A stretch of 64,000 bases of DNA from an uncultured Verrucomicrobiae bacterium (GTDB lineage: Bacteria; Verrucomicrobiota; Verrucomicrobiia; Chthoniobacterales; JAFAMB01), in NCBI GenBank assembly GCA_963813025.1, contig CAWEXO010000008.1:160001-224000 (forward strand). Direction: 5' to 3'. Below are positions 11,114 to 39,427 of the stretch, one piece after another; within the stretch, counting starts at the first letter, position 1, and each line of letters begins with the position of its first letter. A model generated the notes under the pieces. That model made no database searches, was not told where the DNA came from, and worked only from the letters and a program-made list of their open reading frames with translations. Both the position numbers and the translations under genes were made by a program.

Positions 11114-11187
11114 GCACCCGTAGCTCAATTGGATAGAGTATATGACTTCGGATCATAGGGTTGCAGGTTCGAGCCCTGCCGGGTGCA
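11114..11187 (+). tRNA. tRNA-Arg, anticodon TCG (CCA not encoded)
   Basis: Acceptor GCACCCG/CGGGTGC, D-arm GCTCAATTGGATAGAGT, anticodon arm TATGA-CTTCGGA-TCATA, T-arm GCAGGTTCGAGCCCTGC. Confidence 0.96.
11144..11187 (+). repeat. attL core (3' part of tRNA-Arg)
   Basis: Identical 44 bp to 27447-27490. Confidence 0.95.
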
Positions 11188-11251
11188 AATCGGCTACCAG
11201 AGCCAATCTCCAAGCAATTCGCGATTCCGAAACATCCGCTTCCAAAATGTC

Positions 11252-11283
11252 TGTTGGCCGTTTGTTGGCCGTTTTTCGTGTTC
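11252..11283 (+). repeat. 32-bp repeat, probable integrase arm-binding sites (2x TGTTGGCCGTT)
   Basis: Identical to 27294-27325, both just inside the att sites. Confidence 0.8.
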
Positions 11284-11358
11284 GTCAAAAAGCGGATTTT
11301 CACGGCTTTTGAAGATTGACCTTCGGATGGCGCTCGGATCACCATGACGGTTTCCCCA

Positions 11359-11570
11359 TGAAAACCGCTCCTCCGAACTTCAAACCTTCGGGAACCGTCC
11401 TTTACACCTACCGGTGCCCTGAGCACATCGGATTTGATCTCCAAGTCGTTGCGCATATCGCACAAAGCCGCGCAGTGATCGCGCGCAAAGCAAAGACTGC
11501 TAAACAGTCTCTCGGCGCATTTATCTGGGACGAAATGGCGGCGCTAGTCGCTATGGCCAAGCTGGAATAG
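11359..11570 (+). CDS. Hypothetical protein
   Basis: ATG ORF, first of three closely spaced ORFs. Confidence 0.4.
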
Positions 11571-11576
11571 GCATTT

Positions 11577-11759
11577 ATGAAACAGCGAAAACGTAAGCTC
11601 AAAGCCTCCGAGGTCCAGCATATCGTGATTCCGAGCACTGAACTGGTCAAGGCAATCGAGCAGCGCGGACATTGGATGAAAGCCGAGGATGTGCGTCCTG
11701 TAGTAATGAAGGCGCCGGCAAGATTTGGGAACAAGAGGTCCCACTTTACAAAACACTGA
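11577..11759 (+). CDS. Hypothetical protein
   Basis: 60-aa ATG ORF packed between neighbours (gaps of 6 and 1 bp). Confidence 0.4.
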   Translation: MKQRKRKLKASEVQHIVIPSTELVKAIEQRGHWMKAEDVRPVVMKAPARFGNKRSHFTKH

Positions 11760-11760
11760 T

Positions 11761-12069
11761 ATGAAAAATTCACACTTCGAGGAACACGAAATAGAGGCTC
11801 AAGAACCTACTGGACACAGTTGCCCTGTTTGCGAAACCCCCATTTACCGGGTGCGCGCCGAGGGCAAAAACTGGATCAGCTGCGAATGTATGGCCGAAGG
11901 AGACTTTGTTGGCAAGGGTGTGTTGGTTGACGATACCGGCTTTCATAACTCCCTCAGTGAGATCTGGGGTCAAGAAGTCCGCTACATGATGGAGACTCGG
12001 AATGAAAAATTTCCGAAGTCTTCGCTCCCCGGACCGGTTGAGGGGCTTGATCTTTCGGAAGAAGAATAA
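11761..12069 (+). CDS. Small Zn-ribbon-like protein
   Basis: CPVC...CEC motif, acidic composition. Confidence 0.55.
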   Translation: MKNSHFEEHEIEAQEPTGHSCPVCETPIYRVRAEGKNWISCECMAEGDFVGKGVLVDDTGFHNSLSEIWGQEVRYMMETRNEKFPKSSLPGPVEGLDLSEEE

Positions 12070-12343
12070 CAGACAACTTCTCTTCCACCGGATCTTTACA
12101 GCGAATCCTGTTTTTCTCCGGCCGGCTCGAAATAGCGGGTCAACACAATACGGGAAACGAAGTATCCGGGGTTGCAGCCCAGCCGTTGACACTCCGCTCT
12201 GATTAATGCAGCTGTCCCACGCGGAATCTGCCAGCCGCAGCATTCGGTATCGGAGCGGGGACGGCCGGGGGGACGAAGGGACTTGGCGATGCTCGATCTC
12301 GTGCCCTCCACCGTAGCAATTTATCCGGGTTTTTGCTAGGACC

Positions 12344-12589
12344 TTGAACCAGGAGTTTTGTCTGGGGGAAGACGATTTCGTAGTGCTGCCACCTGACCAT
12401 GAGCCAAAACTGCCATTTGACCGTTGGTGCGAAGTCCTGGCCGGCTTGTTGGCAATCGCGATTGCCTGTGTGGATATCTGGAAGATCGGACCGACAGGTG
12501 GTCTTTCCCTTCCTTTGGATGAAATCTTGCTGCTCACCGGAATTGCCTTGGTGGCCGGGATTAACAATCTGTTTGGCCCAAAACCCTAA
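12344..12589 (+). CDS. Small two-TM membrane protein
   Basis: Two hydrophobic stretches (VLAGLLAIAIACV; ILLLTGIALVAGI); AGGA before TTG. Confidence 0.45.
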   Translation: MNQEFCLGEDDFVVLPPDHEPKLPFDRWCEVLAGLLAIAIACVDIWKIGPTGGLSLPLDEILLLTGIALVAGINNLFGPKP

Positions 12590-12597
12590 AGGCTAAC

Positions 12598-12798
12598 ATG
12601 CCAACAAACGCCAAAACCTCTCGGGTAGGACGCCCCCGGCTGGGTGATGAACGCATCGATGTGACTCTGCCGCGATCGGTTGCTAATCAGTTGCGCACCT
12701 TCGAGAATCTAACCGGCAAGTACCGGACCAGGATCGCGGCCAATATCATCACGAACGTCTTGGCCGATCCGGAAGCCACGCAACGCTTCCTCCACTAG
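12598..12798 (+). CDS. Ribbon-helix-helix-like DNA-binding protein
   Basis: GRPR followed by RIDVTLPRSVANQL, an RHH-type strand-helix pattern. Confidence 0.55.
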   Translation: MPTNAKTSRVGRPRLGDERIDVTLPRSVANQLRTFENLTGKYRTRIAANIITNVLADPEATQRFLH

Positions 12799-13512
12799 GA
12801 GCTTGAACACCTCCCGATTGAGCGCATTGCTTCGCGTTATGCCCATAATCTCACCAATCGTTTACGATCTCCCTCGTCGCGCTGGAACTCGGGGTGGACC
12901 AAGCTCGGCAAGAGCGCACCGGAGGATTGCTCAGATCCCTCGTCCTTCCAGGAGCACCGGCACCAGCCACCACCGAATTGAGCTCGTCCATCAAGTCGGC
13001 GAACTAGATGCCGCCGCTCGGAGGATTTGATCGCGCTCGAGCGTCTTAGCCCGATCATTCCTCCTCCTCTACCTCCTCACGCTGGAGCCGCTGGAGCGCT
13101 CCGCAGCCACGAATTGTTTGCGGATGGTGCAGCGCAGCGCTTGGCAGGAACGGGATGATCTCTTAACTAGCACCTCTGATGAATGAGGACGAAGCGCCGA
13201 CCCATGAAACCCACGCCAGAGATGGTCCAAATCCTTATCGAGCGGATAAGAGAAGTTTTAGCCGATCCGGATACGATGGCAGCCCACCCAAAGCGCCTCG
13301 ACTTTATTGCCGAGAGCGAACCGACCTACAAAATCGCAAATCGTTCATGTTGAACGGCTTAAATTCTAGGATCGACCGCTATGCTACCCGCATTGATTCT
13401 GTATTTGCCCTTATCCGAAATGTCGTTTCACTGACCGGAATATGGCGTCTACCGCTGAATCTGATATGATGAGAACGAGAACGTCACCGGAGCCGAGTCA
13501 CCGCAATCAATT

Positions 13513-14322
13513 ATGAATGAAATTCTTGTTGCAATAGGCGGTGGGTTGGCCACCGGTGGGACTCTCGAAAAGTTTCTCGGACCGACTGCGGAGTATCTTG
13601 GCCAGGGTATGTTGACCTTCGCAAAGAGGCGGGGGGAAAATATTCGCCGTATCTTCAGCAAGGCAATAGAAAAACTTGGCAATAGAATCGAATCGCCCGG
13701 ATTTGTCCCTCCGCGAGTTCTTGCCGGGGTTGTCAACGAGGGTTCGTATCGCGAAGACGAACTTGAGGCAGAGTATTTTGGCGGCGTTCTTGCCTCAGCT
13801 CGCACAACAATATCTCGGGACGATCGTGCTGCTTCGATTGTAGCGCTCATAAACCGGTTAACTACTTATCAGTTAAGATCCCATTACATTTTGTATCGGA
13901 CGATCAAGCGTCTCTTTAATGGCACCAATATCGCAATCTCTTCCCCAGCAGAGCGTCTATCTTTAGAAGTCATTATTCCTTTCTCCATATATTCGACTGC
14001 AATGGATTTTTCCGAAGAGGAGGACAATCGGTCACTCTTGCATCATGCTATGAGCGGGCTCGATCACGAAGATCTCATTGAAAAACAAGGACTTTGGAAC
14101 GGCGGGCTGGTCGCCTATTCGATTCAGCCCGAATCGGAAGATATCTCAGTGACGCCCTCTGTTCGAGGAGTCGAGTTGTTTCTCGCCGCCTACGGTTTCG
14201 CACACTTCGGAGTAGATTATTTCCTTTCGTCAAAATGCGAAATTGCCGATTTTGCAGGAATATCTATTCCGGAGGGAGCGCGCAAAGGTCGACCCTCAAC
14301 CCAGACTAGCGGGTTCGAGTGA
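13513..14322 (+). CDS. Abi-alpha/DUF4393-like protein (putative abortive infection)
   Basis: VPPRVLAGVVNEGSYREDELEAEYFGGVLASA...IVALINRLT resembles the Abi-alpha core; more AT-rich cargo. Confidence 0.55.
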   Translation: MNEILVAIGGGLATGGTLEKFLGPTAEYLGQGMLTFAKRRGENIRRIFSKAIEKLGNRIESPGFVPPRVLAGVVNEGSYREDELEAEYFGGVLASARTTISRDDRAASIVALINRLTTYQLRSHYILYRTIKRLFNGTNIAISSPAERLSLEVIIPFSIYSTAMDFSEEEDNRSLLHHAMSGLDHEDLIEKQGLWNGGLVAYSIQPESEDISVTPSVRGVELFLAAYGFAHFGVDYFLSSKCEIADFAGISIPEGARKGRPSTQTSGFE

Positions 14323-14326
14323 GCCA

Positions 14327-14392
14327 TTTTTGGCCACAATTTGTGGCCTTTTTCAGTTGCCTGATTTTGGGCCACGATTCGTGGACATTTTT
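14327..14392 (+). terminator. Tandem hairpins with U-tracts after the Abi-like gene
   Basis: GGCCACAATTTGTGGCC-TTTTT (14332-14353) and CCACGATTCGTGG...TTTTT (from 14372). Confidence 0.5.
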
Positions 14393-14573
14393 CCGCTCCT
14401 CTCGTCTATGTTAGACACCTAACATAGTTCTCGTTCACCTAATAACAAAGTTTGGTTTACATGCGGAAAATCACGCGCTCGACCAGTTCCCGAGTCGAAA
14501 TAGAATGTAAAAAGAAGCAGTTCTGGGTCACTGCTTCCTATTGAAATCGCTCAAATCGGACCGGGGTTTCCAT

Positions 14574-16568
14574 CTACCACACAACCGGCCTATTCTGAAC
14601 GCCGTACCGGTGCGGTCTTGAGGTGCTCTCGCCCTCCACACCGATCGGACGCCCAGCCGGCTGGTAAACGATATCTCGCCGCATCGGCTGGGCTCCCCAC
14701 GCCGGTCTATTGGCGGCGGATTGCTCCTGCTGCGAGAGCGGCGTGTGTTCTCCGACGCCCCTCTCATCCAGGTTGATCCGCAGGCTCTCGAGCGACGAGA
14801 GACACATCACCAAACAATCAAGCGCCTCGTTCCGGGCCCGGGTCTGCACCCATTGAAAGCTTTTGACTCCGTTGCGATACCGCGGCTGCCGGGACTCGCT
14901 GGCCAGTTGGGCAAAGAACTCGCTGTCAAAGCCGCTAGCAACGCCGCCCTCGGGTTCTTTCGGAACATGGACAAAGCCACGGCCCGGAGCTTCCACCTTG
15001 AGGAGGCCAGCTACCAAATCTTTGACCTTGTTCACGTCAGATTTGACGATTCGAGCCCGTTCGTTGGTGTCATCCCGGATCGTCCAGATTGCTCCTTGCG
15101 GCAGGCTGGACAAGCCCTGGAAGGCAATCAAGCGCGGGTAACGACGCTTGGTTTCCCGGCAGACGATTCCGTGGAAGTGGCCACCGCAATCCTGCAAAGC
15201 CCGTCGGACCTGCATCGGAGTGCCATCTTGCCTTTTCCAAGTCCGGTTTAAGACTCTCTCCTCGAGCTCGGCATACATGTGTGCCGTGTCCAGGTCGGGT
15301 CGCCCGAGAATCTGACCGTATTCGAGCAACCACGTCTCCCGACCGGGACCGAAGGCGCAGATCAGGTAGGCAAAGTAGGTGTCCTGGGTATCGATCCCGG
15401 CCACGATGAGCTTCGTTTGGTCGGGAAGTTCGCAGTGATAAACCTCACGCCGACCGACCAGATCGTCTTCGACAATCGCTTCCTTGGAAGTGACGAAAGG
15501 CTCGCCCAGCCTCGTGCCTAAGACCGCCCGGAGCGCACTGTGATCGCCGCTCTTGGCCTGGTGGCTGGCTTGCCGCCACTCGGCATGGACCACACGCCAG
15601 TCGATCAATGGCGATGGCCAGCAGGCCAGGTGGAACCCGCGACGGAACGGGTGGGAGGAGTGCGCCCGCCAGATCCCTTCGTTTCCCAACCATTCCAGCT
15701 GGCTGTATTCCCGCTCACAGGTGACGCACCGGCAAGCGCCAGTCTCAAAGTTCATCTCGGCCAGGGCGAGAATCTGGTAATGGCCAGCCGGACACCGGGA
15801 ATAGTAGTGTTCCTGGGTCGAGTCCTCGTAGAGCGCGCTGATCCGGCACGATTCCAATTCGACCGGGCTTGAGCTGTAGATCACTTTTGTGCTCCCCCGG
15901 AAAGTACTTGTTCTGACCTTGCCCAGAGATACGGCATCGCCTTCCGGTGACCGTCCTTTGGCCATCAAGGGCAGCCTTGAAAGCTCTTCAAAGATCAGGT
16001 AGCGGATCGGCCTCATGGAAAGACCGACGGCGCTCAAGCCGGCCACGATCGATACCTGGCAGCCTGGCCCCAAACTTTTGCGAAACATTGAGCTTTCCGG
16101 CCCGACTTCTTCCTTCTCCCATCTGCCGTTCAAATTCAGACTGTCGCGGAGCATCGGGTCAAGCCGGTCCAGGCTCATCGAGCGACATGCCTGCAGAGTC
16201 GGACAGACCAGAAGCGTCGGCGCCGGATCGACCGATGCCCAGTAAAGAATCGGGTTGAGCGTGGCAAGCTCGCTCTTTCCCACCTGGCTGGCGGCCGAGA
16301 TCACGACCTCCCGCATCGAAGGATTGGCGATTGCTCGAGAGATTTCCCGGCCATAGGGAAACCGATCAAAGGACCAGCGGCCAGGCTCAGCACTTGATTC
16401 CGGGGAAAGGCGCCGGTGTTTCTCCAGCCAGGGGACGATATCCAGCCGCTGAGTCGGTCGGGCCATCTGGCTCAGCTCTCGCAAAACTTCTCGGGTGACG
16501 GCGCTCGGTGTCTCCGAGCCGTTCAGGTGTTTCTTACCGCGCTTTTCTTTTCTCTTGAGAGTGACCAT
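14574..16568 (-). CDS. Phage terminase large subunit, lambda GpA family
   Basis: Walker A ASQVGKSE, PAPTLLVCPT, MRPIRYLIFEE, CPAGH...CVTC, nuclease AGIDTQD, QDCGGH, RNEALDC. Confidence 0.92.
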   Translation of the reverse strand: MVTLKRKEKRGKKHLNGSETPSAVTREVLRELSQMARPTQRLDIVPWLEKHRRLSPESSAEPGRWSFDRFPYGREISRAIANPSMREVVISAASQVGKSELATLNPILYWASVDPAPTLLVCPTLQACRSMSLDRLDPMLRDSLNLNGRWEKEEVGPESSMFRKSLGPGCQVSIVAGLSAVGLSMRPIRYLIFEELSRLPLMAKGRSPEGDAVSLGKVRTSTFRGSTKVIYSSSPVELESCRISALYEDSTQEHYYSRCPAGHYQILALAEMNFETGACRCVTCEREYSQLEWLGNEGIWRAHSSHPFRRGFHLACWPSPLIDWRVVHAEWRQASHQAKSGDHSALRAVLGTRLGEPFVTSKEAIVEDDLVGRREVYHCELPDQTKLIVAGIDTQDTYFAYLICAFGPGRETWLLEYGQILGRPDLDTAHMYAELEERVLNRTWKRQDGTPMQVRRALQDCGGHFHGIVCRETKRRYPRLIAFQGLSSLPQGAIWTIRDDTNERARIVKSDVNKVKDLVAGLLKVEAPGRGFVHVPKEPEGGVASGFDSEFFAQLASESRQPRYRNGVKSFQWVQTRARNEALDCLVMCLSSLESLRINLDERGVGEHTPLSQQEQSAANRPAWGAQPMRRDIVYQPAGRPIGVEGESTSRPHRYGVQNRPVVW

Positions 16569-17079
16569 TAGTACTCGCCCGAGCCAGGATATCGCCCAGC
16601 GAGTCTAACGCATCGGCGCTCTCCGCCTCAAGGATGGCCAGCTGGCTTGCGCGTTCCGTCGTATGGCTTAAGCGCTCAATCACTCGGCTCGAAAAGCTGC
16701 TCATCTTCTGCTGGTAGCTCCGGACCGCTCGGCCAAAGGTCGACAGAAACTCTTCCCGCGGGACCAGGTCGCCACGACTCCGCTCCATGGCCAGCTCAGC
16801 CTTAGCTCGGATCGCCGCCTGAGTCTTGGATTTCTCGGAAAGAAAATCGGTCTGCGCTTTTTCACGTTCCGATCGCTGCAGCTGGGAAAATGAGCGCACA
16901 CAATCAACCAGCGGATAAAGGTACGCCTTCTTGTTTCGCGGATCCTGAATTCGCGAAAACACGCCGCTCCGGGCCAGCCGGGTTGTCACCGTATCAGAGA
17001 GCCCGAGCAGCCGGCTCAGCTCCGCGGCCGGAACGTGGAGCGATTCATCCAACGTCAAAATCTGGACGGAATCTGCCAT
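16534..17079 (-). CDS. Terminase small subunit, Nu1-like
   Basis: N-terminal HTH (AELSRLLGLS...RLARSG...YPLVDCV), coiled coil ending RGDLVPREE, overlaps terL start. Confidence 0.8.
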   Translation of the reverse strand: MADSVQILTLDESLHVPAAELSRLLGLSDTVTTRLARSGVFSRIQDPRNKKAYLYPLVDCVRSFSQLQRSEREKAQTDFLSEKSKTQAAIRAKAELAMERSRGDLVPREEFLSTFGRAVRSYQQKMSSFSSRVIERLSHTTERASQLAILEAESADALDSLGDILARASTNGHSQEKRKAR

Positions 17080-17144
17080 AACAGTTTCGAAGCCCGTTGT
17101 ATCCGCCAATTTAAAAAAGCTCGAGGACTCGCTCGATTTAAAGG

Positions 17145-17186
17145 ATCGCTCGCACCCGTCGAGCGATTAAAGTTCCGACAGGACCC
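17145..17186 (-). other. Putative lambda-type cos site
   Basis: Minus strand GGGTCCT (lambda cosQ sequence), 23 nt ending ACG, then GGTGCGAGCGAT; 8-bp dyad ATCGCTCG/CGAGCGAT; directly upstream of terS. Confidence 0.6.
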
Positions 17187-17250
17187 AGTCCCGGGGATTA
17201 ATTTTTTCGGCGGGAAAGCGCTCGCCTCCCCCGAGTAGATGATTGGATGA

Positions 17251-17991
17251 TCAAGCGAAGTCATACCGTTTGCTTCGCTCGGTTGCGAACCTCTCACGCA
17301 AAGCCAGAACGCGTTTTACTTCCTGCGCCAGTTGTTCTGATCTCAGCTCCGGTGAAGAAGGACGACCTCGAATGAAACTTGAAAAGATCGAGTTACTTTG
17401 GACGAACTCGTTGAGCGCAATGACATCACGAGCACTTTCCGCGACTGGCAGGAGAGCGAAAGCCTGGGGTTCAATTCTTTTGGCCAACATCTCAAGATGA
17501 GCTGCCACACGTTCGGCCCGGAGACCTTGAGCCTGCTGCTCCAGGGAGACCCGAGCATAATCGATTCGGTCGCGAAGCTGCTGCCGAGCTTCCCCTTCCT
17601 GAGATAGCAGGCGGGTATGACGGGCGGCTAGAACTTTGGTCAAAGCCTGAGCCTTTGAGACGCGGTCCACCAACTCGTCTTCCTCGCCCAGGTCATCGGC
17701 CACGAGCTTGACTTCTTGGGCTTTGGCTGCTTCGAGCCGGCACGCGAGCTTGGCCAATTCCTGGCGGAGCTTGTCCGCTCTCGCTTGAACCACAGTCATT
17801 GCTTTCCAAGGATCCGGCTCGGTGGAATCAGGTCCAGGCGGTTTAGGGGAAGGGATTGGCGGCACCACGGGTAGAGCTGCCCACTGAGCAACAGCGTAAT
17901 CCGAGAGAGGCTCCGGCTTCGTACTGACCGGGAGTGCCGGAGTTGATGGAACAATGGGTGGACGGACGGGAGATTCAGTCATCGGGTTCAT
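17251..17991 (-). CDS. Hypothetical protein, Pro-rich N-terminus plus long coiled coil
   Basis: Composition; ATGA overlap with the upstream gene. Confidence 0.75.
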   Translation of the reverse strand: MNPMTESPVRPPIVPSTPALPVSTKPEPLSDYAVAQWAALPVVPPIPSPKPPGPDSTEPDPWKAMTVVQARADKLRQELAKLACRLEAAKAQEVKLVADDLGEEDELVDRVSKAQALTKVLAARHTRLLSQEGEARQQLRDRIDYARVSLEQQAQGLRAERVAAHLEMLAKRIEPQAFALLPVAESARDVIALNEFVQSNSIFSSFIRGRPSSPELRSEQLAQEVKRVLALRERFATERSKRYDFA

Positions 17992-18236
17992 TTGGTTTGA
18001 GCTGCTGCCTTTTTGAGAGAAGTAATAATCGGGGAAGGCTGCTTCGAGTTTCCGGCCCGGGTTGATCTCAGGTACTCGGCTTCGCTTTTGGGAAGCGTAG
18101 CTTTGCTTTTTACTGGGGGGCGGAGGCTAGCGGCGAGAAGCCGCCCGGCGTGATCGGCTGGGGAACGACCGAGCAACTGGGCGCCTTCGCGAAGCCGCTG
18201 GTAAAGCTCGGGGGCGAGTTGGATTTCTAATTTCAT
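17988..18236 (-). CDS. Ribbon-helix-helix-like protein
   Basis: MKLEIQLAPELYQRLREGAQLLGRSPADHAGRLL; ATGA overlaps on both sides. Confidence 0.65.
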   Translation of the reverse strand: MKLEIQLAPELYQRLREGAQLLGRSPADHAGRLLAASLRPPVKSKATLPKSEAEYLRSTRAGNSKQPSPIITSLKKAAAQTK

Positions 18237-18448
18237 GATGCTGCAATGCTTTTGGATCGGTGGGTTGACTGCGAAAGCCGAAGAGTTAAAGGCGCACCTG
18301 GCTGCTCGGAATTGAGCCAGACCTGGATTGAAACTGGCTTTCCCTCGATCTGGATTGTGCCGGCATAATTGGGTTGCCAGTCGGCGGTTCGATTTGCTTT
18401 GACGGGCAAGCGGACAGTGAGCGGGCACGCTTGGGTAAGTTCTTTCAT
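18233..18448 (-). CDS. Small DUF736-like/ssDNA-binding-like protein
   Basis: QPNYAGTIQIEG...QVWLN pattern; ATGA coupling. Confidence 0.5.
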   Translation of the reverse strand: MKELTQACPLTVRLPVKANRTADWQPNYAGTIQIEGKPVSIQVWLNSEQPGAPLTLRLSQSTHRSKSIAAS

Positions 18449-18909
18449 TGTAACGCCTCCGGGAAGGCCGCTCCGAAACAGTGGGAGTAAGCTTCATCAA
18501 AAGTGGCGTAACGCTGAGTGCTGGGTTCGGCGCCGTCACCCTCAAAGATGAGAGCTGCGAAATAAACGGGCTGAGCGGAAGGACTAACCTCGAAGATTCT
18601 TACCCGGCTGGATGGAGCACTCCACCGCTCTCTCCAGATAGCGTTGTTGCGCTGAAAACTAAGCCGACGCGTTCGGGTTCGGGCAATGGCCAGTGCCATG
18701 GTCCGGTTAGTCAAGCCGCTGAAAATTGGACCGCGCTCTGAGGAGAGCAGGCCGGTTATTTCGAAGGAAGAGCAGCCCTCGTAGCCGCCACAGGCCGGGC
18801 CGCGGCATTGGCCGGTAAGCAGATCGTTGGGTTCATCGAACTCCAGATGAATACTCCCGCCACATCGCGGGCAGCGGCGGGTAGTGTCGTAGTGCCAGGC
18901 TTGGGACAT
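18445..18909 (-). CDS. Zn-finger hypothetical protein
   Basis: CPRC...CRGPAC...C; coupled to the downstream gene. Confidence 0.55.
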   Translation of the reverse strand: MSQAWHYDTTRRCPRCGGSIHLEFDEPNDLLTGQCRGPACGGYEGCSSFEITGLLSSERGPIFSGLTNRTMALAIARTRTRRLSFQRNNAIWRERWSAPSSRVRIFEVSPSAQPVYFAALIFEGDGAEPSTQRYATFDEAYSHCFGAAFPEALQ

Positions 18910-18979
18910 AGATATTTTGTGGGTTTGAAGAACGTTTGGGACGGTCTGTGGAAATTGGTACGGGTTCGGGTTTGGGCAG

Positions 18980-19261
18980 TCATGACTTTATGATCAGTGC
19001 TCGTCCGCCTCCATAATGCGTTACGAATGGCCTCTGACACATGCTTTGTGCGCAGAGCTCTTCTTCGCGCTCGATGTTTGGCTGGACATAGCCACTAGCC
19101 GCTATGGTCACCGGCTTAGTAAGACCTCTTAAGATAAGGTCCTCAGCTGGCAGTATGTTATGGACACTGAACCGCGAAACCTTTCGGCGGTGCCAAGGCA
19201 ACAGCAGAAAGGCCAGAAGCTGGCCAAGGAAGAGACGACGTTTTACTTGCTCTGTTTTCAT
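18980..19261 (-). CDS. Hypothetical protein
   Basis: 93-aa ATG ORF on the operon strand. Confidence 0.35.
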   Translation of the reverse strand: MKTEQVKRRLFLGQLLAFLLLPWHRRKVSRFSVHNILPAEDLILRGLTKPVTIAASGYVQPNIEREEELCAQSMCQRPFVTHYGGGRALIIKS

Positions 19262-19368
19262 TGGGTAGAAACGAGTCTTGAAGTCACCCGACCATTCTTG
19301 GAAAGCCAGCAGCAGCCACCTCAGTGCTGTAGTCCGTTCTGCCTCGGTCCAGCAAGTCCGGTAAGGAA

Positions 19369-20916
19369 TCAGGTTGCCTGATCGCCCACCGAGGCATTTT
19401 TGCTAATGTCAGAAGTCTCGATCGCCCCTTCATAAAATTTCAAGACTCTTTGAATGTAATTCCGAGCTCCTTTCGGAGTTCCTACGTGCTCTAAAGGCCC
19501 AGCGAGCAAACGCGGTCTCCACTCGTCATCAAAAAGTTGGAGAAGTCTTTCTTGTTTCAATTTGCTGTAGATTGGTAGAAACATTTCCATCAATGTTCGC
19601 TTCGGGGCGATTGGCAGATCAAGGTGCGCCAGAAGGTAACCAACAAATGCAGACGTCATGGTATCCCCCGGCCATTCGCTGCTCAAGGCGTAAAGGCACG
19701 GCTTCGGCCAGGAGTTAGCGTTCGCGACATCAATCTCGTGCTGCTGGGATACAAAATGGTAGCCAGCCACGCATACAGCGGTAACAGTTTGAAAAAGGTA
19801 GAGGTACTCTCGAGTGGGGACGACTTCCTTTATCCGCTGAGCAATTGCCATGTCGCTTCTATAGCCTTGTTCAAATGCAAAAATCCCTTGGAATATCGGA
19901 ACAACTTGAGGATGCCGCGCTGTGGCTTCGAATAATATTTCGAGGGCTTCATCGAGCGCATTCGTGTTGAGTTTTGTTTTCACTTCTACAATAGCGCGCA
20001 CCGAATCCCGCGGAACGACGACCACCTCATTTTCTCTGAACAATGGTGCATAGTTGATGGCGTCCCAAACAATGATATCGAGCTGGCGTGCGCAATCCTC
20101 GATAAACCCAGTGCTCACCCGAAACTTTCCGGGAACAACCTTACGCAGAAATCCACGCAACAACTCTTCGCGAAAGCTTCCTGCGGTCCCAGAATGGCGA
20201 ATTAGAAAATCGACTTGCCTGCTTTGGGCAAGAAGCTGGTCTGAAAATCTCGAGAGGTAGTCTATTCTATCGAAAAATCCATGGACGAGCGGAGCCAATC
20301 CATACCAAATCTTATCTCCACTGACGTGTACACTTCCTGAGCCCATAGAGTCCATCATGCGCAGCGTGTCTTCGATGAGGTCTTTCTCGAGCTCTGGGTT
20401 GCCGCGGACGGTTTGAATGAGTTCCGGCAAGAGACGTCGCCGTCCCGTGGAGTCGCGTAAAATGAGCAGAACGGTTTCCTGTATTTTAAGCCACGGTGCC
20501 GGATCAACGGCGATTTTCGACGAACCACTTCTCGCGTTGCATAAAACGTGCTTCCCGATTGCCCGGTGATACTCGCGCAATGGCGAGACTATCCACTGGT
20601 GTCCAAGAATCACAGGAGCTTGGTGAATCCATAGCTCTCCTTCTTTTGAAACTATTAAACCGGTACGAGTGGTTCCCCAATCGGAATCCGGATCGTAAAC
20701 AAACTCTCTATCGGAGAAAAATGTTTCGTCATGGGGAAGTCTTGAAATCAAGCGTTCCTGATCTGTCATTGAAAGACGAATAGTAGCACCGTCATTGCAG
20801 AAACGCTTTCTGGCGATCACATACAAGTGTTCTGGGGGTGTGGTTGGTAAGACAGATACAAACGAGTGAACTGACTGAATAGGTCTTTCATGCTGATGGT
20901 GGTCGAATGTGACCAT
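19369..20916 (-). CDS. NucC/DUF6602-like PD-(D/E)XK nuclease with an unknown N-terminal domain
   Basis: HSGTAGSFREELLRGFLRKVVPGKFRVSTG...QLDIIVWD...PRDSVRAIVEVKT; more AT-rich than its surroundings. Confidence 0.75.
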   Translation of the reverse strand: MVTFDHHQHERPIQSVHSFVSVLPTTPPEHLYVIARKRFCNDGATIRLSMTDQERLISRLPHDETFFSDREFVYDPDSDWGTTRTGLIVSKEGELWIHQAPVILGHQWIVSPLREYHRAIGKHVLCNARSGSSKIAVDPAPWLKIQETVLLILRDSTGRRRLLPELIQTVRGNPELEKDLIEDTLRMMDSMGSGSVHVSGDKIWYGLAPLVHGFFDRIDYLSRFSDQLLAQSRQVDFLIRHSGTAGSFREELLRGFLRKVVPGKFRVSTGFIEDCARQLDIIVWDAINYAPLFRENEVVVVPRDSVRAIVEVKTKLNTNALDEALEILFEATARHPQVVPIFQGIFAFEQGYRSDMAIAQRIKEVVPTREYLYLFQTVTAVCVAGYHFVSQQHEIDVANANSWPKPCLYALSSEWPGDTMTSAFVGYLLAHLDLPIAPKRTLMEMFLPIYSKLKQERLLQLFDDEWRPRLLAGPLEHVGTPKGARNYIQRVLKFYEGAIETSDISKNASVGDQAT

Positions 20917-21192
20917 TCAAAAACTGATCCAGCCCGGATTCGAGGGCATCGGAGTTTGGTCGAAACATCAGCCTCGGGGATGTCATGAGGGGTTTAGCAT
21001 TTCTCAATCCAGAGCGCCAGACTTTGGAAAACAAGATGGCGCAACAGGAGCAGCTCCTTAAGTTCAGCGCGGTCCAACGAGCGTTGGAATTTCAGAGTGG
21101 TCAGTTCTTTGAACCGATCGTAGCGCTCCACGAAGGAGCGGGAATCCGCATCACTCCGGGTTCGTAACTCGCTCACGACGGTGGGTTCGGGC

Positions 21193-21400
21193 ATGTTCCA
21201 CAAGAATGTTCCACAAAGAACGCGGTTAGACAAAGAAGAGAAGGAAAGAAGAGATCCTTCCCACTAAAGCTTCTCCACTTTAGTAAATAGTAATAGAAGA
21301 GAAGAATAAGAAGAAGAGAAGAATAAGAAAGAAACAAGGAACGGGGTACGTCTTCCCGAAGCTGGCGGGAAGGTACCTGCACGAAGTTGGCGGGAAGGTA
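21193..21400. promoter_or_regulatory. Putative replication origin of the element
   Basis: 2x ATGTTCCACAA, hairpin 21263-21284, tandem 17-mer AGAAGAGAAGAATAAGA x2, 2x CGAAGYTGGCGGGAAGGTA; abuts the wHTH gene stop. Confidence 0.5.
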
Positions 21401-21709
21401 TCACTCCCAGGGCAGTTTCCAATTCAGGATTATTTTTGGATTTTTGCCATTTGTCCGTTCCCACGTAATGGCTCCGTATTTTTTCAACACCTGCAACGCT
21501 TTTTGTTTTTGATTCTTTGAGATTCTGTAGGAACGCAGGCTTTCTGAGGTGAGAGTGATGGGATTTCTATGTTTCCAGTCCAAGTAACACGTTTCATAGA
21601 GCACCAAGAGGACAGTCAAGGCGGGCATGTAGCCACTCGCAATGATTGTAAGCAGGACCGATTTCGGAAGGGTCAAGCGCTCCAACTTTCGATATTTCGA
21701 GGAACTCAT
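21401..21709 (-). CDS. Winged-helix DNA-binding protein (possible initiator)
   Basis: ITLTSESLRSYRISKNQKQKALQVLKKYGAITWER wHTH pattern; ATGA overlap with polymerase stop. Confidence 0.7.
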   Translation of the reverse strand: MSSSKYRKLERLTLPKSVLLTIIASGYMPALTVLLVLYETCYLDWKHRNPITLTSESLRSYRISKNQKQKALQVLKKYGAITWERTNGKNPKIILNWKLPWE

Positions 21710-23418
21710 AATCTCCGCATGATTTCGTCCCACATGGGTTTGCCCTTCTTTTTCATGTAGCGATCCGGATAGCGGACGATGGTCGGCTCTATTCGCAGTT
21801 TATAGCCGTCCAGAACCATGGCGGAGGCTTTTTCCATGCAGGCCTGCAGTGCAGCTACAACCGTCTCAATCTCGGCGGCTGGCGCTACCACGGCCATGGC
21901 GTCATGCATCAAACCGCAGACGGGAAGCCCGGCTTCGGTCGCGAAAATTGCCGCCAGCCGCAGCATGTCGCCAGCGTTGCCCTGGCTGTGATAATTACCG
22001 GCAGCCCGGGCATTGCAGCTGGCGTCGGTGATGCGTTTACGCCAGCCGAAGGTGGTAAATTGAAAGGTGTGAATGAAGGCATGATTCTTGACGTCCTCCA
22101 GCCACTCCCAGTAGCGCGGGAAAATCTCCCGGTGCAGGCGCAACAGACGCCTGGCCACCGTTTGTGGCTGTCCCAATTGGCCGGCGAGGGTTTGGTCGTG
22201 AATCTCGTATTGAGTGCCGAGGATGCAGGGCTTATAACGCTCGCGCAGCTCCTCGTGAGTCTCCTTGGTTGCGCCGGGCGGAGCATCTCCGACCTCCATG
22301 GCAAACCACAGGTAGATATCGGGACTTTCGTAAGCCCGGATCATGTTGGGATCGCCGCAGAGCACTGCGGCAATGCCAAACTCCTGGGCCACCCAGTCCA
22401 GGACAGCGAAGGTTTCGCCCGGCGCCGGTTTAACTAAGCCGCGCAGCCACGAGGGAGCGCCGAGAATGGATTGGGCAGGCGAGGGCATGTTACGGCCCGT
22501 GATTGTCCAGAATGGGTTCATGTACGCGCGATTGCAGCCATCCGAACCGACAGGAAAATCTAAAAGTCGCGTTTTGGAGAGAATGCCTCGCAGGTAGCGC
22601 AACTTCAGAAGCTGGGGATAAACTCGAGCCCGTTCTTCAAAAGCCTCGTCATCCAGGCGAAGTGTGCCGCTTTTAAGAACCGGCCATTCAATACCTTCTC
22701 GCGTCAGGTACTCAACAAATTTGTTCGTGTTAAACGAAGCGCCTTCATAAACTCCGTAGTCTCGATCGACTTCGGCAATCAGCTCGTGTTTAATCCGTGA
22801 CATCTCTTCCCGGAGACGATCGCGCAGCGGTTCATCAAAAGGTACGCCGACCCGCTCAATCCAAGCCAGGCTGTACATGTAGCGTCCGCGCAGAGTGGCT
22901 CGGGGCAGGTCCAACAGAGGCAACATCTTTCTAAAAAGCTCCGCAGTTTCATCCACGTCACTTTCGCAATAATCCAGAATTTCCTGGCGTTCTTCCGAGC
23001 TCCAAGGTCCGCCACGCAAGACCAGATCTCGCTTCGCGGCCTTTTCTTCTTTGGTGATCGCGACAATGCCGAAGTCCACTAGAGCCCGTAACAGGGAAGT
23101 TGGCGTGGGCTTCTTCGTCTGGCCGTTTATGAGCCAGCGATATTCGCTATAGAGATCCAGAATGCACTGCGGTTTGGCCCAGCCAAGCGCCAGGTGACAG
23201 GAAGCTTCGGCGCTTGTCTGGTATGATACAAAGAGGGAACCTGGCCCTATATCGTAGGGTGGACGGTCCTCAAATTCCGTGTACCAAAGTTTGATTTTCC
23301 GGTTCGAGCGCAGTTCGCGCGCGACCAAACAGATCGGCTGCACATTACCGTTGCCTTGCGGAATAAACTCAAAGTCAGCAATGGTAATGTGCCGGAACCG
23401 ATCGAGCAGGAAGGACAC
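21706..23418 (-). CDS. Family A DNA polymerase with 3'-5' exonuclease, no 5' nuclease
   Basis: ExoI ADFEF, ExoIII YCESDV, TITGR, motif A LDWVAQEFGIAA, motif B RERYKPCILGTQY, NYHSQGNAGD, motif C MHDA. Confidence 0.92.
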   Translation of the reverse strand: MSFLLDRFRHITIADFEFIPQGNGNVQPICLVARELRSNRKIKLWYTEFEDRPPYDIGPGSLFVSYQTSAEASCHLALGWAKPQCILDLYSEYRWLINGQTKKPTPTSLLRALVDFGIVAITKEEKAAKRDLVLRGGPWSSEERQEILDYCESDVDETAELFRKMLPLLDLPRATLRGRYMYSLAWIERVGVPFDEPLRDRLREEMSRIKHELIAEVDRDYGVYEGASFNTNKFVEYLTREGIEWPVLKSGTLRLDDEAFEERARVYPQLLKLRYLRGILSKTRLLDFPVGSDGCNRAYMNPFWTITGRNMPSPAQSILGAPSWLRGLVKPAPGETFAVLDWVAQEFGIAAVLCGDPNMIRAYESPDIYLWFAMEVGDAPPGATKETHEELRERYKPCILGTQYEIHDQTLAGQLGQPQTVARRLLRLHREIFPRYWEWLEDVKNHAFIHTFQFTTFGWRKRITDASCNARAAGNYHSQGNAGDMLRLAAIFATEAGLPVCGLMHDAMAVVAPAAEIETVVAALQACMEKASAMVLDGYKLRIEPTIVRYPDRYMKKKGKPMWDEIMRRL

Positions 23419-23425
23419 GCTTGCC

Positions 23426-24127
23426 CTACTCCACGCCAGCCAGGTTCTGCATGATCGGATGTTCCATGGAATCGATCACCCGATTCTTGAAGGCTAGCCG
23501 CAGAATTTCGCCAAAAGATACCTCCGGCCAAATCGGTTCGGGCATCTTTCCGTTAGGCCGGACATAGGCATAACAGCCGCCTTCGGCATAGACACGCAAC
23601 CATTCGGTTTTGCACATATCGGCAATCTCTCTGGCGGTTCTCCAATAATCATTGTCCCTGGCCCCATCCAGGGGGAGGCGTATTTTCCAGACGAAAGGCT
23701 TTTCCGCGTGGCGCTCCAAAGCCAGACAAAGAATGACACTTTTCATGAGCACCTTGTATTCCTCTGCCAGCTCCTGCAAAAAGGGAGGAGAAATCAGGTA
23801 GGTATCCCTTTCCATCCCTGCCTCATCGGTGTCTTCAAAAATGTAAGTCAGGTACTGATAGTCTTCCCCAGGATGCACCCGACAAAAGGAGCCCGGCCGT
23901 GGGACTTTTCTAATGCTGTAGCTGGTGACTAACTTCTTAGCCGGGGCTTTCAGCGTTGCCTGGCTAACCCGCATGTTGAGCGGATCAAATGGATCAAATG
24001 CGGGTTTTGGTTCGTTACGTGAAGCTTCAACCAGCTCGGATTGAGCCGTCGAACTTACTTCGGATATGTGGTTTTGTGTGCCATCCGAGCTGATTGTATC
24101 AAAACTAACTGTCTCGCGTTTTTTCAT
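23426..24127 (-). CDS. Hypothetical PolA-associated protein (possible ssDNA-binding protein)
   Basis: 7 bp upstream of polA; aromatic-rich motifs FCRVHP, PFVW, EPIWP, AF..RVIDSMEHP; function inferred from context. Confidence 0.75.
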   Translation of the reverse strand: MKKRETVSFDTISSDGTQNHISEVSSTAQSELVEASRNEPKPAFDPFDPLNMRVSQATLKAPAKKLVTSYSIRKVPRPGSFCRVHPGEDYQYLTYIFEDTDEAGMERDTYLISPPFLQELAEEYKVLMKSVILCLALERHAEKPFVWKIRLPLDGARDNDYWRTAREIADMCKTEWLRVYAEGGCYAYVRPNGKMPEPIWPEVSFGEILRLAFKNRVIDSMEHPIMQNLAGVE

Positions 24128-24158
24128 AAAAAGTTAGATTGCCGGGGTTTTTAATGAT

Positions 24159-24470
24159 TTAGGTTTGAAATTCTAGCTGTCGCGCGTCCCGTTTAGCCTT
24201 GCGCGGCCTCCCGGGCAGCTCGTAAAGGCTAAATACCTCGGGTAGGAGACAAGAGCAGGTCACCGCGGTGGGTATCCACCACCGGGGGTTCTCGTTCGTA
24301 ATTCGGGAGTCTGCTCGCGCCGCAAATAATACGACGAGCGGCTGCTGGCACTTATCGCAGCTAAGTTCCCGGTGCTTGTTCTCTCTCCAGCAGGGAAGAG
24401 AATTAAGCAGCGCAAACTGGGTGCCGCGGACTTCTAAGAATTCTGGTCTTTTGACAGTAACACGTTTCAT
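24159..24470 (-). CDS. Zn-binding hypothetical protein
   Basis: CDKC...CSC; same strand as the replication operon. Confidence 0.5.
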   Translation of the reverse strand: MKRVTVKRPEFLEVRGTQFALLNSLPCWRENKHRELSCDKCQQPLVVLFAARADSRITNENPRWWIPTAVTCSCLLPEVFSLYELPGRPRKAKRDARQLEFQT

Positions 24471-24508
24471 AATTATTGGGTTTCTTCCCCCTCTGGGAAC
24501 CCTTCCTC

Positions 24509-24850
24509 TCAAGGGCGCTCACTATCATCTTTTCTGAGACTGTTTAGGATAGGCCCTGTCGTGCGATTAAACCGGGTACCATATGCTCGCTTGCCCGCCC
24601 ATCGCCTTCTGGTGAGTTCCTCGACCTTTGATTTTAGTTCCGCCAAGTCGTCGCTGAACATGCTCCAGACAGGAACGGCCAATTCCGGGAACCTTTTCGG
24701 AACGCCGATAAAGATGCACTGGAAGCGTTCTCCCGATTCACCTGCACTTTCTTTTGTGTAGAACTCGAACAATCCATCCCGCGTTTCGACGGCGGGTTCT
24801 GGCAGTAGCGGACGATAGCCGTCCAAAATAGGGGCGTTAGTAAATCTCAT
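24509..24850 (-). CDS. Hypothetical protein
   Basis: ATG preceded by GGAGAG; operon strand. Confidence 0.5.
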   Translation of the reverse strand: MRFTNAPILDGYRPLLPEPAVETRDGLFEFYTKESAGESGERFQCIFIGVPKRFPELAVPVWSMFSDDLAELKSKVEELTRRRWAGKRAYGTRFNRTTGPILNSLRKDDSERP

Positions 24851-25172
24851 AGGCTCTCTCCGTTCTTTACTTGCCACAATTCTTGATGGGGTTGTGGCCC
24901 TCTTGTTTGGCGGACTTCTCAATGACCGGCGGCCGCCATTAAGCCGGCTGCCGGCAGCGTGCCGGCGAAAATGGGTCAAGGTGTTTTGGGGAGGCTCTGC
25001 GTTTTGCCGTCCGTCATCTGAAGAGAACGTCGGCTCATTGGAACGGCAGAAGACAAAGGCCCCGACGTCGGGACCTTCTATTTACAAACAACAGTTCTGC
25101 AATCGTCCGAAGACAGTGGTTTATTGGGAATAAGAGTGCGTAGTTCTGCTAGTACCACCCAAGATGCGAATT

Positions 25173-25376
25173 TTAGACCGCCTCCGCATACCGGCGATTC
25201 ACGCGCGCCCGGCGCCACGCCAGCACCTCACTCAAACGATAGCGAACAAGGCCGCTGCCAATACTGTGTGCTGGGCATCCCTCGCGCCGATATCGTCGGA
25301 TTGTCGCGGGGTCCACGTCGATCACCCGAGCCACATTGGGCCCGGACATGAGCTGCTCTAAGGGTTGTTTCTTCAT
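25173..25376 (-). CDS. Excisionase/AlpA-like HTH protein
   Basis: VARVIDVDPATIRRYRREGCP...VRYRLSEVLAW. Confidence 0.85.
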   Translation of the reverse strand: MKKQPLEQLMSGPNVARVIDVDPATIRRYRREGCPAHSIGSGLVRYRLSEVLAWRRARVNRRYAEAV

Positions 25377-25473
25377 AGATAGGCGATGGATACTCCATCG
25401 TTGTCCGCTTTTGATCAGCGGAACGCAAGAAAAAAGTTATAGCGATGATATATTTATGCACTATTATCCGCAC

Positions 25474-26031
25474 ATGCCCGCTTCTGTCCGACTACACAAT
25501 CTTGTAAGGCTACGAGAACACCTGAAACTGACCCAAGGCCAACTGGCTGAGCTTGTTCGCTACGCGCCAATCACGATTCGCTCAGTCGAAACCGGCAAAC
25601 TGGGGCTTTCCCGCGAACTCGCTGAGCGGGTTGCTGCGGTAACGGCTTGCGACGCCGCGTGGTTGCTTAATAACGATTTGAAAGCGCCGCTTAGCTTCAA
25701 CCGTCCACAACCGACGGCTAAGAGTGACTGGCAAAAGGTTGCCAAGGGGGATCTGCTCAACGTGACTGCGCGCGCTTTTGAAATTGCAAACCAAATTGAA
25801 GACGAAGCAAGTGCTCGGCTCCTGTCACATTGCGTAGTGCAGTTTCACCAGCATTTAGAGCGCACCGTTGGCTTGTTTGCCGGCCGCCGATCTCAGCCGA
25901 TAAAGCCGACCGAATATCTAATATCCCAACTTGAACAACTGTCTATTTCGACCCCGCGGCAGCGGCTGCAGCAGGAAAAGGATCCACCGAAGCGCCCGAA
26001 AGCACGCTCCCGAACCCGCTCGTCACTTTGA
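25474..26031 (+). CDS. XRE-family HTH repressor
   Basis: LREHLKLTQGQLAELVRYAPITIRSVETG; divergent from xis. Confidence 0.85.
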   Translation: MPASVRLHNLVRLREHLKLTQGQLAELVRYAPITIRSVETGKLGLSRELAERVAAVTACDAAWLLNNDLKAPLSFNRPQPTAKSDWQKVAKGDLLNVTARAFEIANQIEDEASARLLSHCVVQFHQHLERTVGLFAGRRSQPIKPTEYLISQLEQLSISTPRQRLQQEKDPPKRPKARSRTRSSL

Positions 26032-27340
26032 CGCTCCGGTCGGCATAGTACTCGCTTGTGGTTCGGATATCGCTGTGACGCAGCGCGGAGCTCGCCGCGT
26101 GCAATCCATGCCGGTCGGCAATCGCGCTCCCGAAAAGCTTCCGCAGCGCGTGGAAGGGTTTGTTTCCCTGGATACCCTTGGCTCGGAGCCAGCCCAGCAG
26201 CGATCCCCACACCTCTTGCGCCCGGTAACGCTGGTAACGCACATTCTTCGGTGCGCGTTTGCTCTCGATCACAAACGCCCCCCTGGCCGTCACCTTCCAG
26301 CCCCGGAACAACGCCATGATCTCGGGCTCTGCGGGCAGCACAGCCGCGCTTTCGCGGGTTTTAAGCTGGTAGTACCTGGTCGGCATGATTCGCACCGTGC
26401 TGGCGCCGAAATCGAAGCTCTGCCATTCCAAGGTGTCGGCTTCCTTGCGTCTTAACCCCAGCACCAAGGCCAAGATGAAGGCCTTCAGCTCTTCGGGTCG
26501 GTTAGTGGAAAGCTCGGTGAGGGCATCGCGGAAGAGCTGGTTTGGCTCCGTCCCGCAGCCGTAAAACTTGGTATCAGTGCGACGTTCCACGCTGACATCG
26601 TCGAAGGGAAGCACCGCTGGCAACTCAACGCCAGAGAGTTTGCTCAGCACATTGCGTTTCGAGAAGAGCGCCCGCGCCTGGCGCAAGAGCGAGTTACAGG
26701 AATTGGTGTACTGGCGCCGGCGAAGCTCATCCGTCCCAGCTCGGTCGATGAACTTCCTTTTCCAAGCCCGAACCTTGCTCGGTGTCACTTCGGCCAGCGG
26801 GACAGCGTGCACGCTGGCAAGCCATCTCTGGTTTCCGCCGGTCCGGTAATCGAAGCGAGCCTTACCCCCTTTTATCCTGGCAACCTCCGAAACGATGCGC
26901 CGGAAGCTTTTGGCGTAGCCCTCGACTGTTACCGGCGACAGCTCGGTCTGCGTGGCAACTGCGTTTAGGAATTCGCCGACAGTGCCTCCAAGCTCAGAAG
27001 TGCTTATATTATCACTACTTATTTTAGCCTTCTCCGTCTGCCGATCGCGGTACTTCTCCTTGAACTCCACCCAACCGTTGGCGACCAAAAATTGATAGCG
27101 TTCCTTGGCGAGGGCGGCAGCTTCGGCTTGATTGGCCGTCGCCAGACTCATCGTCACCCGGCGGCCGACATGCTGCAGCTTGACACAGTAGACCGGCGAC
27201 ACGTCCACCTTTCCTCCCGCCCGGAAAATCTTAGGTTTGAACACCCGTTTTGACCAGTAGCGGGTGTCATTTTTAGAAATGACAAACCTAGTTTGTTGGC
27301 CGTTTGTTGGCCGTTTTTCGTGTTCATGCATGTCCGGCAT
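25943..27340 (-). CDS. Tyrosine recombinase/integrase
   Basis: Full catalytic set: GLRRKE, LKTRES, HALR, LRHSD, TSEYY; next to attR. Confidence 0.95.
   Translation of the reverse strand: MPDMHEHEKRPTNGQQTRFVISKNDTRYWSKRVFKPKIFRAGGKVDVSPVYCVKLQHVGRRVTMSLATANQAEAAALAKERYQFLVANGWVEFKEKYRDRQTEKAKISSDNISTSELGGTVGEFLNAVATQTELSPVTVEGYAKSFRRIVSEVARIKGGKARFDYRTGGNQRWLASVHAVPLAEVTPSKVRAWKRKFIDRAGTDELRRRQYTNSCNSLLRQARALFSKRNVLSKLSGVELPAVLPFDDVSVERRTDTKFYGCGTEPNQLFRDALTELSTNRPEELKAFILALVLGLRRKEADTLEWQSFDFGASTVRIMPTRYYQLKTRESAAVLPAEPEIMALFRGWKVTARGAFVIESKRAPKNVRYQRYRAQEVWGSLLGWLRAKGIQGNKPFHALRKLFGSAIADRHGLHAASSALRHSDIRTTSEYYADRSVKVTSGFGSVLSGASVDPFPAAAAAAGSK
27294..27325 (+). repeat. 32-bp repeat, probable arm-binding sites
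   Basis: Identical to 11252-11283. Confidence 0.8.
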
Positions 27341-27446
27341 TGTGCGGATATTGTTTCACACGATCGCCTGGAGATCAAGTGCTGAAGCGGATTTGTAACC
27401 AGCTAAGAGCGGATTCTGCCGAACATTCAAAAACCCCGAAGGATAA

Positions 27447-27490
27447 GACTTCGGATCATAGGGTTGCAGGTTCGAGCCCTGCCGGGTGCA
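27447..27490 (+). repeat. attR core (duplicated tRNA 3' part)
   Basis: GACTTCGGATCATAGGGTTGCAGGTTCGAGCCCTGCCGGGTGCA, identical to 11144-11187. Confidence 0.95.
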
Positions 27491-39426: not shown

Positions 39427-39427
39427 T

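Follow-up and report, generated by a model that had tools for sequence, protein, structure and literature searches.

A mobile island of 16.3 kb, bounded by attachment (att) sites and seated in a tRNA-Arg(TCG) gene of a Verrucomicrobiae bacterium, carries a lambda-type cos site and both terminase subunits with no recognizable portal gene (Table 1). We analysed it within a 64,000-nt stretch of contig CAWEXO010000008.1 (contig positions 160,001–224,000), hereafter the window, whose numbering is used for all positions; the source genome (G000) measures 4.4 Mb and is 80% complete. The island probably belongs, as an intact copy, to a family of satellites that integrate at tRNA genes and fill the proheads of helper phages by means of their own terminase. 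The best explanation of this family is descent from lambda-like (GpA/cos) temperate phages, with cos, terS and terL kept and the portal, the tail and usually the capsid lost. It is a real and recurrent variant of phage satellite, with an unproven mode of transfer.

The packaging module has the layout of its lambda counterpart. In the window, cosQ (GGGTCCT) is followed after 20 nt by ACGG, and in the lambda record (J02459) the same cosQ is followed after 20 nt by ACG and then the cohesive end. Both modules have a Nu1-like TerS overlapping a GpA-like TerL, and the island TerL shares with lambda gpA the Walker A residue K98, Walker B residue E195 and nuclease residues D393, D460 and D584, although the two proteins are only 23% identical. 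The distance from cosN to terS is <70 nt in the island but ~180 nt in lambda, and the head genes W-B-C-D-E are missing downstream of the island terL. Thus, compared with a complete lambda-like prophage, cos, TerS and TerL are present while the portal–head–tail–lysis block after terL is absent. The exact lambda spacing occurs at three places in the genome: in the window, upstream of terS at locus L028 and in a duplicate of the L028 region. A relaxed rule derived from lambda only gave matches for 12 of 16 regions, 70–141 nt ahead of terS; in shuffled sequences the rate was 7–23% per region of up to 400 nt. This rule was relied on in place of a family-derived pattern, which was dropped as circular; that pattern's fifth genome match, at C6, duplicates the C5 region at 95% and so is not independent.

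cosQ is reported to be required for ending packaging at a downstream cos (PMC4669245), and its retention argues that DNA is truly translocated into a head. The TerL C-terminal tail reads G-[AV]-Q-x-x-x-x-x-W or similar, ending in W, in six aligned members. As the C-terminus of lambda TerL is described as docking on the portal (PMC9026076), we infer that this tail selects the helper.

No portal, capsid, tail, holin, primase or helicase gene was found among the 27 open reading frames (ORFs) of the island scanned against Pfam and PHROGs, and portal and gpE profiles found no match in its six frames. Nine of its frames reach 240 amino acids: seven correspond to assigned genes, another runs antisense to polA, and the last is the 271-amino-acid frame at 11773–12585. 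In G000, at 80% completeness, no portal was detected with PF05136, PF04860, phrog_21, PF05133 or a custom profile; PF06381 was silent in every control genome as well, making its negative uninformative. The first-pass annotation of this DNA had likewise recognized no capsid, portal, tail, primase or helicase, and most of the anatomy that it described was borne out. The last 44 nt of the tRNA recur identically at the far end, the integrase has its full catalytic set (R297, K327, H397, R400, H422 and Y432), the repressor and excisionase genes are divergent, the family-A polymerase and the Nu1-like and GpA-like terminases have profile matches, and the claimed tight ATGA coupling is seen in three overlaps (18448/18445, 18236/18233 and 17991/17988). 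The cos-like site proved clearer than first described.

G000 contains four further terL loci besides that of the window, and G000, its sister genome G001 and genome G011 together yielded seven att-bounded elements of 9.9–18.5 kb in different tRNA genes (16.3 kb at tRNA-Arg, the window island; 17.7 kb at Tyr; 9.9 kb at Leu; 18.5 kb at Met; 17.0 kb at Arg-ACG; 17.3 and 13.9 kb at Ser). All seven have the order integrase, repressor, replication genes, terS, terL, cargo, att. None has a portal: 151–4,432 nt separate the terL stop from att, and no same-strand frame longer than 311 amino acids lies in between. The scanned members showed no conjugation genes. At an eighth locus, L028, cos-terS-terL is retained; an att pair and an integrase of its own were not found there. 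The portal-less combination of integrase, terS and terL therefore recurs in independent genomes, where the first-pass annotation had held that failure to recur would speak against a new type.

Other parts of that proposal fared less well. It had described a layout like that of phage-inducible chromosomal islands (PICIs), with PolA replacing the primase–replicase genes and a whole terminase without a head; the PolA part holds for the window island but not across the family, in which the replicon is PolA in two elements, primase and helicase genes in four, and AAA_24 with an exonuclease in one. We therefore rejected PolA as a family marker, the more so as it also occurs in head-encoding phage contigs. 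Nor is absence of a capsid general. The 9.9-kb tRNA-Leu element L027 (G000:C5:89810–99866) encodes a lambda gpE capsid (PF03864, E = 3e-30) and a weakly matching gpD upstream of its cos-terS-terL, with no portal, and its terL stops 151 nt short of the tRNA; the G001 and G011 elements have no gpE-type capsid. The window island and the tRNA-Tyr element (C13) are 95.7% identical over the 4.0-kb PolA module, while their TerLs are 55% identical and their integrases have no BLASTP match, so modules have been exchanged.

Related terminases outside the family are almost always followed by a portal. In a control set of the 80 best IMG/VR loci with a GpA TerL, 74 have a lambda-type portal downstream. 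Where the downstream DNA extends to 1 kb or more, the figure is 74 of 75; five of the six portal-less loci have less. The family TerLs group in a single clade to which no portal-linked TerL belongs (17 of 126 rows, SH-like 98; in a second tree, 14 of 45 chosen rows, SH-aLRT 99), which argues against the island being a deletion remnant of a close full-length prophage. Within this clade, TerLs are under purifying selection: the ratio of non-synonymous to synonymous substitution rates (dN/dS) is 0.10–0.36 for terL (10 of 11 pairs computable) and 0.18–0.36 for terS (five pairs), and the cleanest terL pair, L026–L031, gives 0.127 over 673 codons.

The family is narrow. Among 43 host-family genomes, many of them incomplete, TerL profile matches were found in five, in two as fragments, and beyond G000 and G001 the databases contain just three proteins more than 45% identical to TerL. 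A clade motif matched no viral contig and, in a class sample of 401 genomes excluding the host family, G000 only; IMG/VR scans with a single TerL and with the L027 capsid gave no matches. In metagenomes, the TerL motif had 48 matches, of which 25 encode a clade TerL (the 23 non-TerL matches were discarded); at one of these loci, L170, a tRNA-Gln gene lies within 318 nt after terL.

Portal-less integrase–terS–terL loci also occur elsewhere in the order (L236 in G190, L237 in G232 and L238 in G229) and in PolA-bearing viral contigs (L208, L211, L222 and L224). A single origin of all portal-less GpA elements was rejected (approximately unbiased (AU) test, p = 1.5e-68), whereas joining L211 and L222 to the clade was not (AU p = 0.56). 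Lambda-like phages would have given rise to the portal-less, terminase-carrying strategy on several occasions. L236, L237 and L238 lie near tRNA genes and on unrelated TerL branches, the terL of L238 ending 283 nt from tRNA-Gly.

We infer that the elements are packaged into helper proheads, in the following manner. Helper infection or DNA damage would lift the repressor, and Xis and Int would excise a circle. The circle would replicate by an exchangeable replicon, here PolA with its bound 233-amino-acid partner and a small origin binder, with helicase and probably priming supplied by host or helper. The element's own TerS would bind its own cos and its own TerL would cut the concatemers, attach through its C-terminal tail to a helper prohead at the portal, and fill that prohead. 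The helper would provide tails and lysis, and the host may profit from cargo such as the NucC-like nuclease. Because cosQ makes packaging stop when a downstream cos is reached, each lambda-sized head would take up about three 16-kb copies; six of the seven element sizes (14–18 kb) come to roughly a third of a lambda-sized genome, and multimer packaging has been reported for an Escherichia coli PICI (PMC10111431).

Several observations weigh against helper-prohead filling by an intact satellite. The phrog_21 portal was found in none of the 43 host-family genomes, and no helper was found. The cos rule failed in three of 16 regions, several of which are near-copies, and matches in G011 were only distant. 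terL is frameshifted in two of seven members, and another locus has neither integrase nor replicon. Eleven of the 25 TerL-positive metagenome loci represent one truncated chromosomal remnant amid host genes, and in two further loci the N-terminal part is cut off. For seven of the 17 clade rows there is too little context or none, the trees carry long-branch warnings, and no IMG/VR TerL among the best 80 loci exceeds 35% identity. Finally, the island has no primase or helicase to account for initiation by PolA.

The frequency of frameshifted and truncated copies would suit a defective-prophage lineage whose late operon was lost and which persists, or is only occasionally rescued, with the terminase unused. 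Two members have phage early genes (AAA_24, DUF669 and exonuclease), portal-less GpA loci lie on several branches as the AU test indicates, and the portal-less L237 is placed among portal-bearing prophages. Yet purifying selection holds between portal-less members up to ~40% amino acid divergence, these form one clade without a portal-linked member, their att pairs are intact at different tRNAs and their modules were recently swapped, and in L027, unlike in lambda, the capsid genes precede terS; we consider decay of this kind unlikely. Less likely again is a terminase that serves as an anti-phage or stress effector, jamming invading lambda-like proheads or acting as a nuclease, in an element that moves otherwise. 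The defence-type cargo beside the terminase, the report that the Gifsy-1 terminase is also a tRNase (PMC11610961) and the failure to find a helper would fit, but the cis-acting cosQ–cosN, for which a decoy would have no need, persists at lambda spacing ahead of terS; TerL retains both its ATPase and its nuclease residues, and no conjugation genes were seen in the scanned members.

It is also conceivable, if very improbable, that co-resident elements complement each other, a gpE/gpD element acting with an unrecognized portal so that an ordinary helper is unneeded. G000 has five terL loci, one with gpE and gpD, and also an island that encodes an HK97-type capsid and has a tape-measure-like gene. 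Against this, the five portal profiles were silent in G000, at 80% completeness, and the G001 and G011 elements lack a gpE-type capsid. The HK97-type island (G000:C5:317300–330900; L240, L246) encodes an integrase, a primase-helicase and a TIGR01554 capsid and adjoins a tRNA-Arg-like sequence uncalled by ARAGORN; a portal and a terminase were not seen in it.

Taking the family as satellites that fill helper proheads, among its nearest counterparts are Gram-negative PICIs of the EcCICFT073 type (PMC10085698, PMC10111431, PMC9026076), with which it has in common a size of 10–20 kb, the integrase–regulator–replication–late order, cos packaging into lambda-like helper heads (proposed here) and an optional gpE-family capsid, as in L027. 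The window island has the integrase and regulation module and the small terminase of a PICI and, like one, no tail or holin genes; the primase–replicase module is absent from it, PolA standing instead, but present in four sister elements. In these reports PICIs borrow the helper TerL via their own TerS or Rpp, whereas family elements encode their own, which is intact in the island. Capsid-forming PICIs (cf-PICIs), for which terL is listed as specific, are likewise small integrative elements that bring their own terS and terL, but they encode portal, capsid and head–tail connector or adaptor and steal tails only (PMC10085698). Portal and connectors are missing in all family members checked, and we rejected cf-PICI membership because the island has no portal or head genes.

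The island has in common with the record of P4 its tRNA integration, probable arm repeats and proposed cos packaging, and that record lists no terminase; the island has no match to the alpha primase-helicase, Sid or Delta, although its long helical 246-amino-acid protein could act in a Psu- or Sid-like way, the likeness to Psu being unconfirmed. P4 membership was rejected, as no alpha primase-helicase or Delta is among the 27 ORFs. Pipolins are defined by a primer-independent family-B polymerase, and membership was rejected because the island polymerase belongs to family A. VEIMEs and tycheposons are integrase-bearing, about one third of helper size and in some cases carry TerS or DNA polymerase genes, but their large terminase is expected from the helper (PMC9618062), whereas the island brings its own. 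In the sections consulted, no large terminase is reported for EPIPs and phiAH14b, and PMC11389934 and bioRxiv 2025.02.15.638363 add no portal-less satellite type with its own terminase. The literature surveyed, where satellites either redirect the helper terminase or build their own head with a portal, gave no description of a satellite that lacks a portal yet brings TerS, TerL and cos of its own; the supplementary gene tables for VEIMEs, tycheposons and HE-PICIs could hold some. If the proposed packaging is true, a full own motor with a borrowed portal would be a third satellite packaging route, and would make TerL–portal specificity, through the C-terminal tail, directly testable. Satellite models now in use miss such elements, which would be classed as decayed prophages; one soil-type genome, G000, holds five terL loci.

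The PolA of the island has intact exonuclease and polymerase motifs, with Leu at motif-B position 400; D15, E17, D88, Y150, D154 and L400 are invariant across 18 sequences, and dN/dS is 0.08. The 233-amino-acid protein encoded upstream is predicted to bind it. An ESMFold2 model of the complex scored 0.66 (best control 0.00), on a scale where the binding mark was reached by 116 of 157 solved pairs and two of 215 mismatched pairs; runs had at least 22% of contacts in common, with a partner pLDDT of at least 68. The predicted interface comprises partner residues 46–62, a motif conserved in the partner alignment. Modelled from its sequence alone, the partner gave no usable structure (pLDDT 36.5); an ESM search gave no lead and its profile had no real PDB match. 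The polA-coupled 110-amino-acid protein may be a winged-helix origin binder, and the origin-like region noted in the first-pass annotation does contain a skewed tract and repeats but stays a candidate only.

With at least 3404 proteins, the PolA–partner module forms a large, so far unstudied family; its binding motif is predicted, and it is a candidate for initiation without a primase. The count refers to relatives of PolA. The same upstream partner often lies alongside PolA in 17 IMG/VR loci, and a GpA TerL follows PolA in seven of these, including L212, which has a portal and capsid; the module thus also serves as a phage replicon. In the class sample, this PolA occurs next to integrases in G000, G455 and G618, and no GpA terminase match was found in the DNA examined around it in G455 and G618. 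The G618 locus (L229, G618:C160) is a tRNA-Met island with an integrase and the partner–PolA module. Cultured phages gave distant PolAs only, ~22–25% identical among the matches listed, and IMG/VR scans with a single PolA as query gave none. CCPol-MP of staphylococcal elements offers a precedent for PolA priming with a small partner (PMC10201439); by analogy, the island PolA may prime with its partner, or else use host primase and helicase. With CCPol-MP and CHEAP / PolA3 (PMC10201439, PMC12926913) it shares a mobile-element PolA without 5′–3′ exonuclease, Leu at motif B3 and a small binding partner (predicted here). However, CCPol has a truncated exonuclease whereas the island PolA has a full 3′–5′ exonuclease, and the island partner has no detected likeness to any family and no Cch2-type helicase accompanies it. 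The 3′–5′ exonuclease motifs and motif-B3 Leu of the CHEAP / PolA3 subfamily are present, in a comparison by features.

Table 1. Features of the island and its borders in window coordinates.
Feature	Position	Strand	Remarks
tRNA-Arg(TCG)	11114–11187	+	3′ 44 nt (11144–11187) = attL
Probable integrase arm site, copy 1	11249–11283	+	35-nt repeat with tandem 11-mers
Variable cargo zone, small ORFs	11316–12589	+	No family matches
Unassigned 271-amino-acid frame	11773–12585	−	No match to portal or gpE profiles (these profiles only)
Conserved 66-amino-acid gene	12598–12798	+	After terL in 6 of 7 att-bounded members
Low-GC cargo gene, 269 amino acids	13513–14322	+	GC 0.49
Terminator-like hairpin	14512–14539	−	35 nt past terL stop; consensus match only
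TerL, lambda GpA type, 664 amino acids	14574–16568	−	GpA ATPase and GpA nuclease matches
TerS, Nu1-like	16534–17109	−	phrog_57 (E = 5.5e-13), phrog_141; alternative ATG start 17079
cos site	17145–17186	−	cosQ GGGTCCT 17186–17180; candidate cosN cohesive end 17156–17145
Helical-hairpin protein, 246 amino acids	17251–17991	−	Upstream of cos
Four small coupled genes	17988–19261	−	Common to three sister elements
DUF6602 / PD-(D/E)xK NucC-like nuclease	19369–20916	−	Between short ACTCGTTT repeats; missing from sister element
Origin candidate	21170–21400	.	Purine-skewed tract and two 24-nt repeats; travels with PolA module
110-amino-acid gene coupled to polA	21401–21733	−	Putative winged-helix origin binder
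Family-A DNA polymerase (PolA), 570 amino acids	21706–23418	−	PF00476, phrog_17
PolA partner, 233 amino acids	23426–24127	−	Family-less; predicted PolA binder
Two small genes	24159–24979	−	Travel with PolA module
Excisionase / AlpA-like HTH	25173–25376	−	HTH_17, phrog_66; divergent from repressor
XRE-family repressor	25336–26031	+	HTH_3/HTH_31
Tyrosine integrase, 465 amino acids	25943–27340	−	PF00589
Probable integrase arm site, copy 2	27291–27325	+	Second copy of 35-nt repeat
attR	27447–27490	+	44 nt, identical to tRNA 3′ end

The 35-nt end repeats, tested as a 22-mer, occur twice genome-wide, once near each island end, and are probably integrase arm sites; annotated arm repeats occupy a comparable position in the P4 record. 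In G001 the same tRNA has no island and is followed by a short integrase fragment and then by host genes matching the window from 39997 onward. The ~12.5 kb past attR (27491–39996) have no counterpart after this tRNA in G001, so the accessory region reaches beyond the island. On the other side, an IS1380-family transposase gene (DDE_Tnp_1_4; 9474–10850) lies between leuS and the tRNA, and a tandem array of a 6-nt unit (TATCAG; 6335–6502) lies upstream of leuS. A third, inverted copy of the tRNA-Arg att lies 145 kb away (G000:C8:332267–332317; L030, L264) beside DUF433/PIN genes and a homologue of the 66-amino-acid gene; it is what is left of an older element, perhaps relocated via an inversion. 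A promoter scan gave matches at chance level, and a terminator consensus scan found 29 where 19.8 were expected.

Of the two defence-like genes in the first-pass annotation, that at 19369–20916 is backed by its DUF6602, PD-(D/E)xK and NucC-like matches and is probably defence cargo, while the product of 13513–14322 matched nothing in four libraries. The conserved 66-amino-acid gene has a dN/dS of 0.10 on 13 changes; its product may be ribbon-helix-helix-like, with no library match. One of the four coupled genes weakly matches a single-stranded DNA-binding protein (phrog_18154, E = 0.004). The 246-amino-acid protein, with 11 relatives among 1.84 billion representatives, is a candidate capsid-binding or interference factor on a weak Psu-like lead: its nearest named ESM cluster is Psu (0.88), and Foldseek weakly retrieved 4dvd at rank 40 (E = 1.4). 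An hhalign comparison with Psu and Sid, from a three-row profile only, found no match, and further searches gave generic coiled-coil matches only.

Cargo elsewhere in the family includes, in the tRNA-Met member (L029), a 971-amino-acid alpha-amylase / solute-binding fusion (9343–12258) and a VWA gene, placed between replicon and terminase. The truncated metagenomic terL copies, which start from residue 156 (L161, L165, L166, L173, L178, L182, L190, L192, L198, L202 and L203), sit in related soil metagenome contigs, and the frame of L198 is still open to the C-terminus. In G000, further duplications of tRNA ends surround islands of ~10–28 kb at C4 tRNA-Pro, C13 tRNA-Arg(TCT), C14 tRNA-Val and C15 tRNA-Leu, those at tRNA-Pro and tRNA-Arg(TCT) carrying an integrase and primase-like genes.

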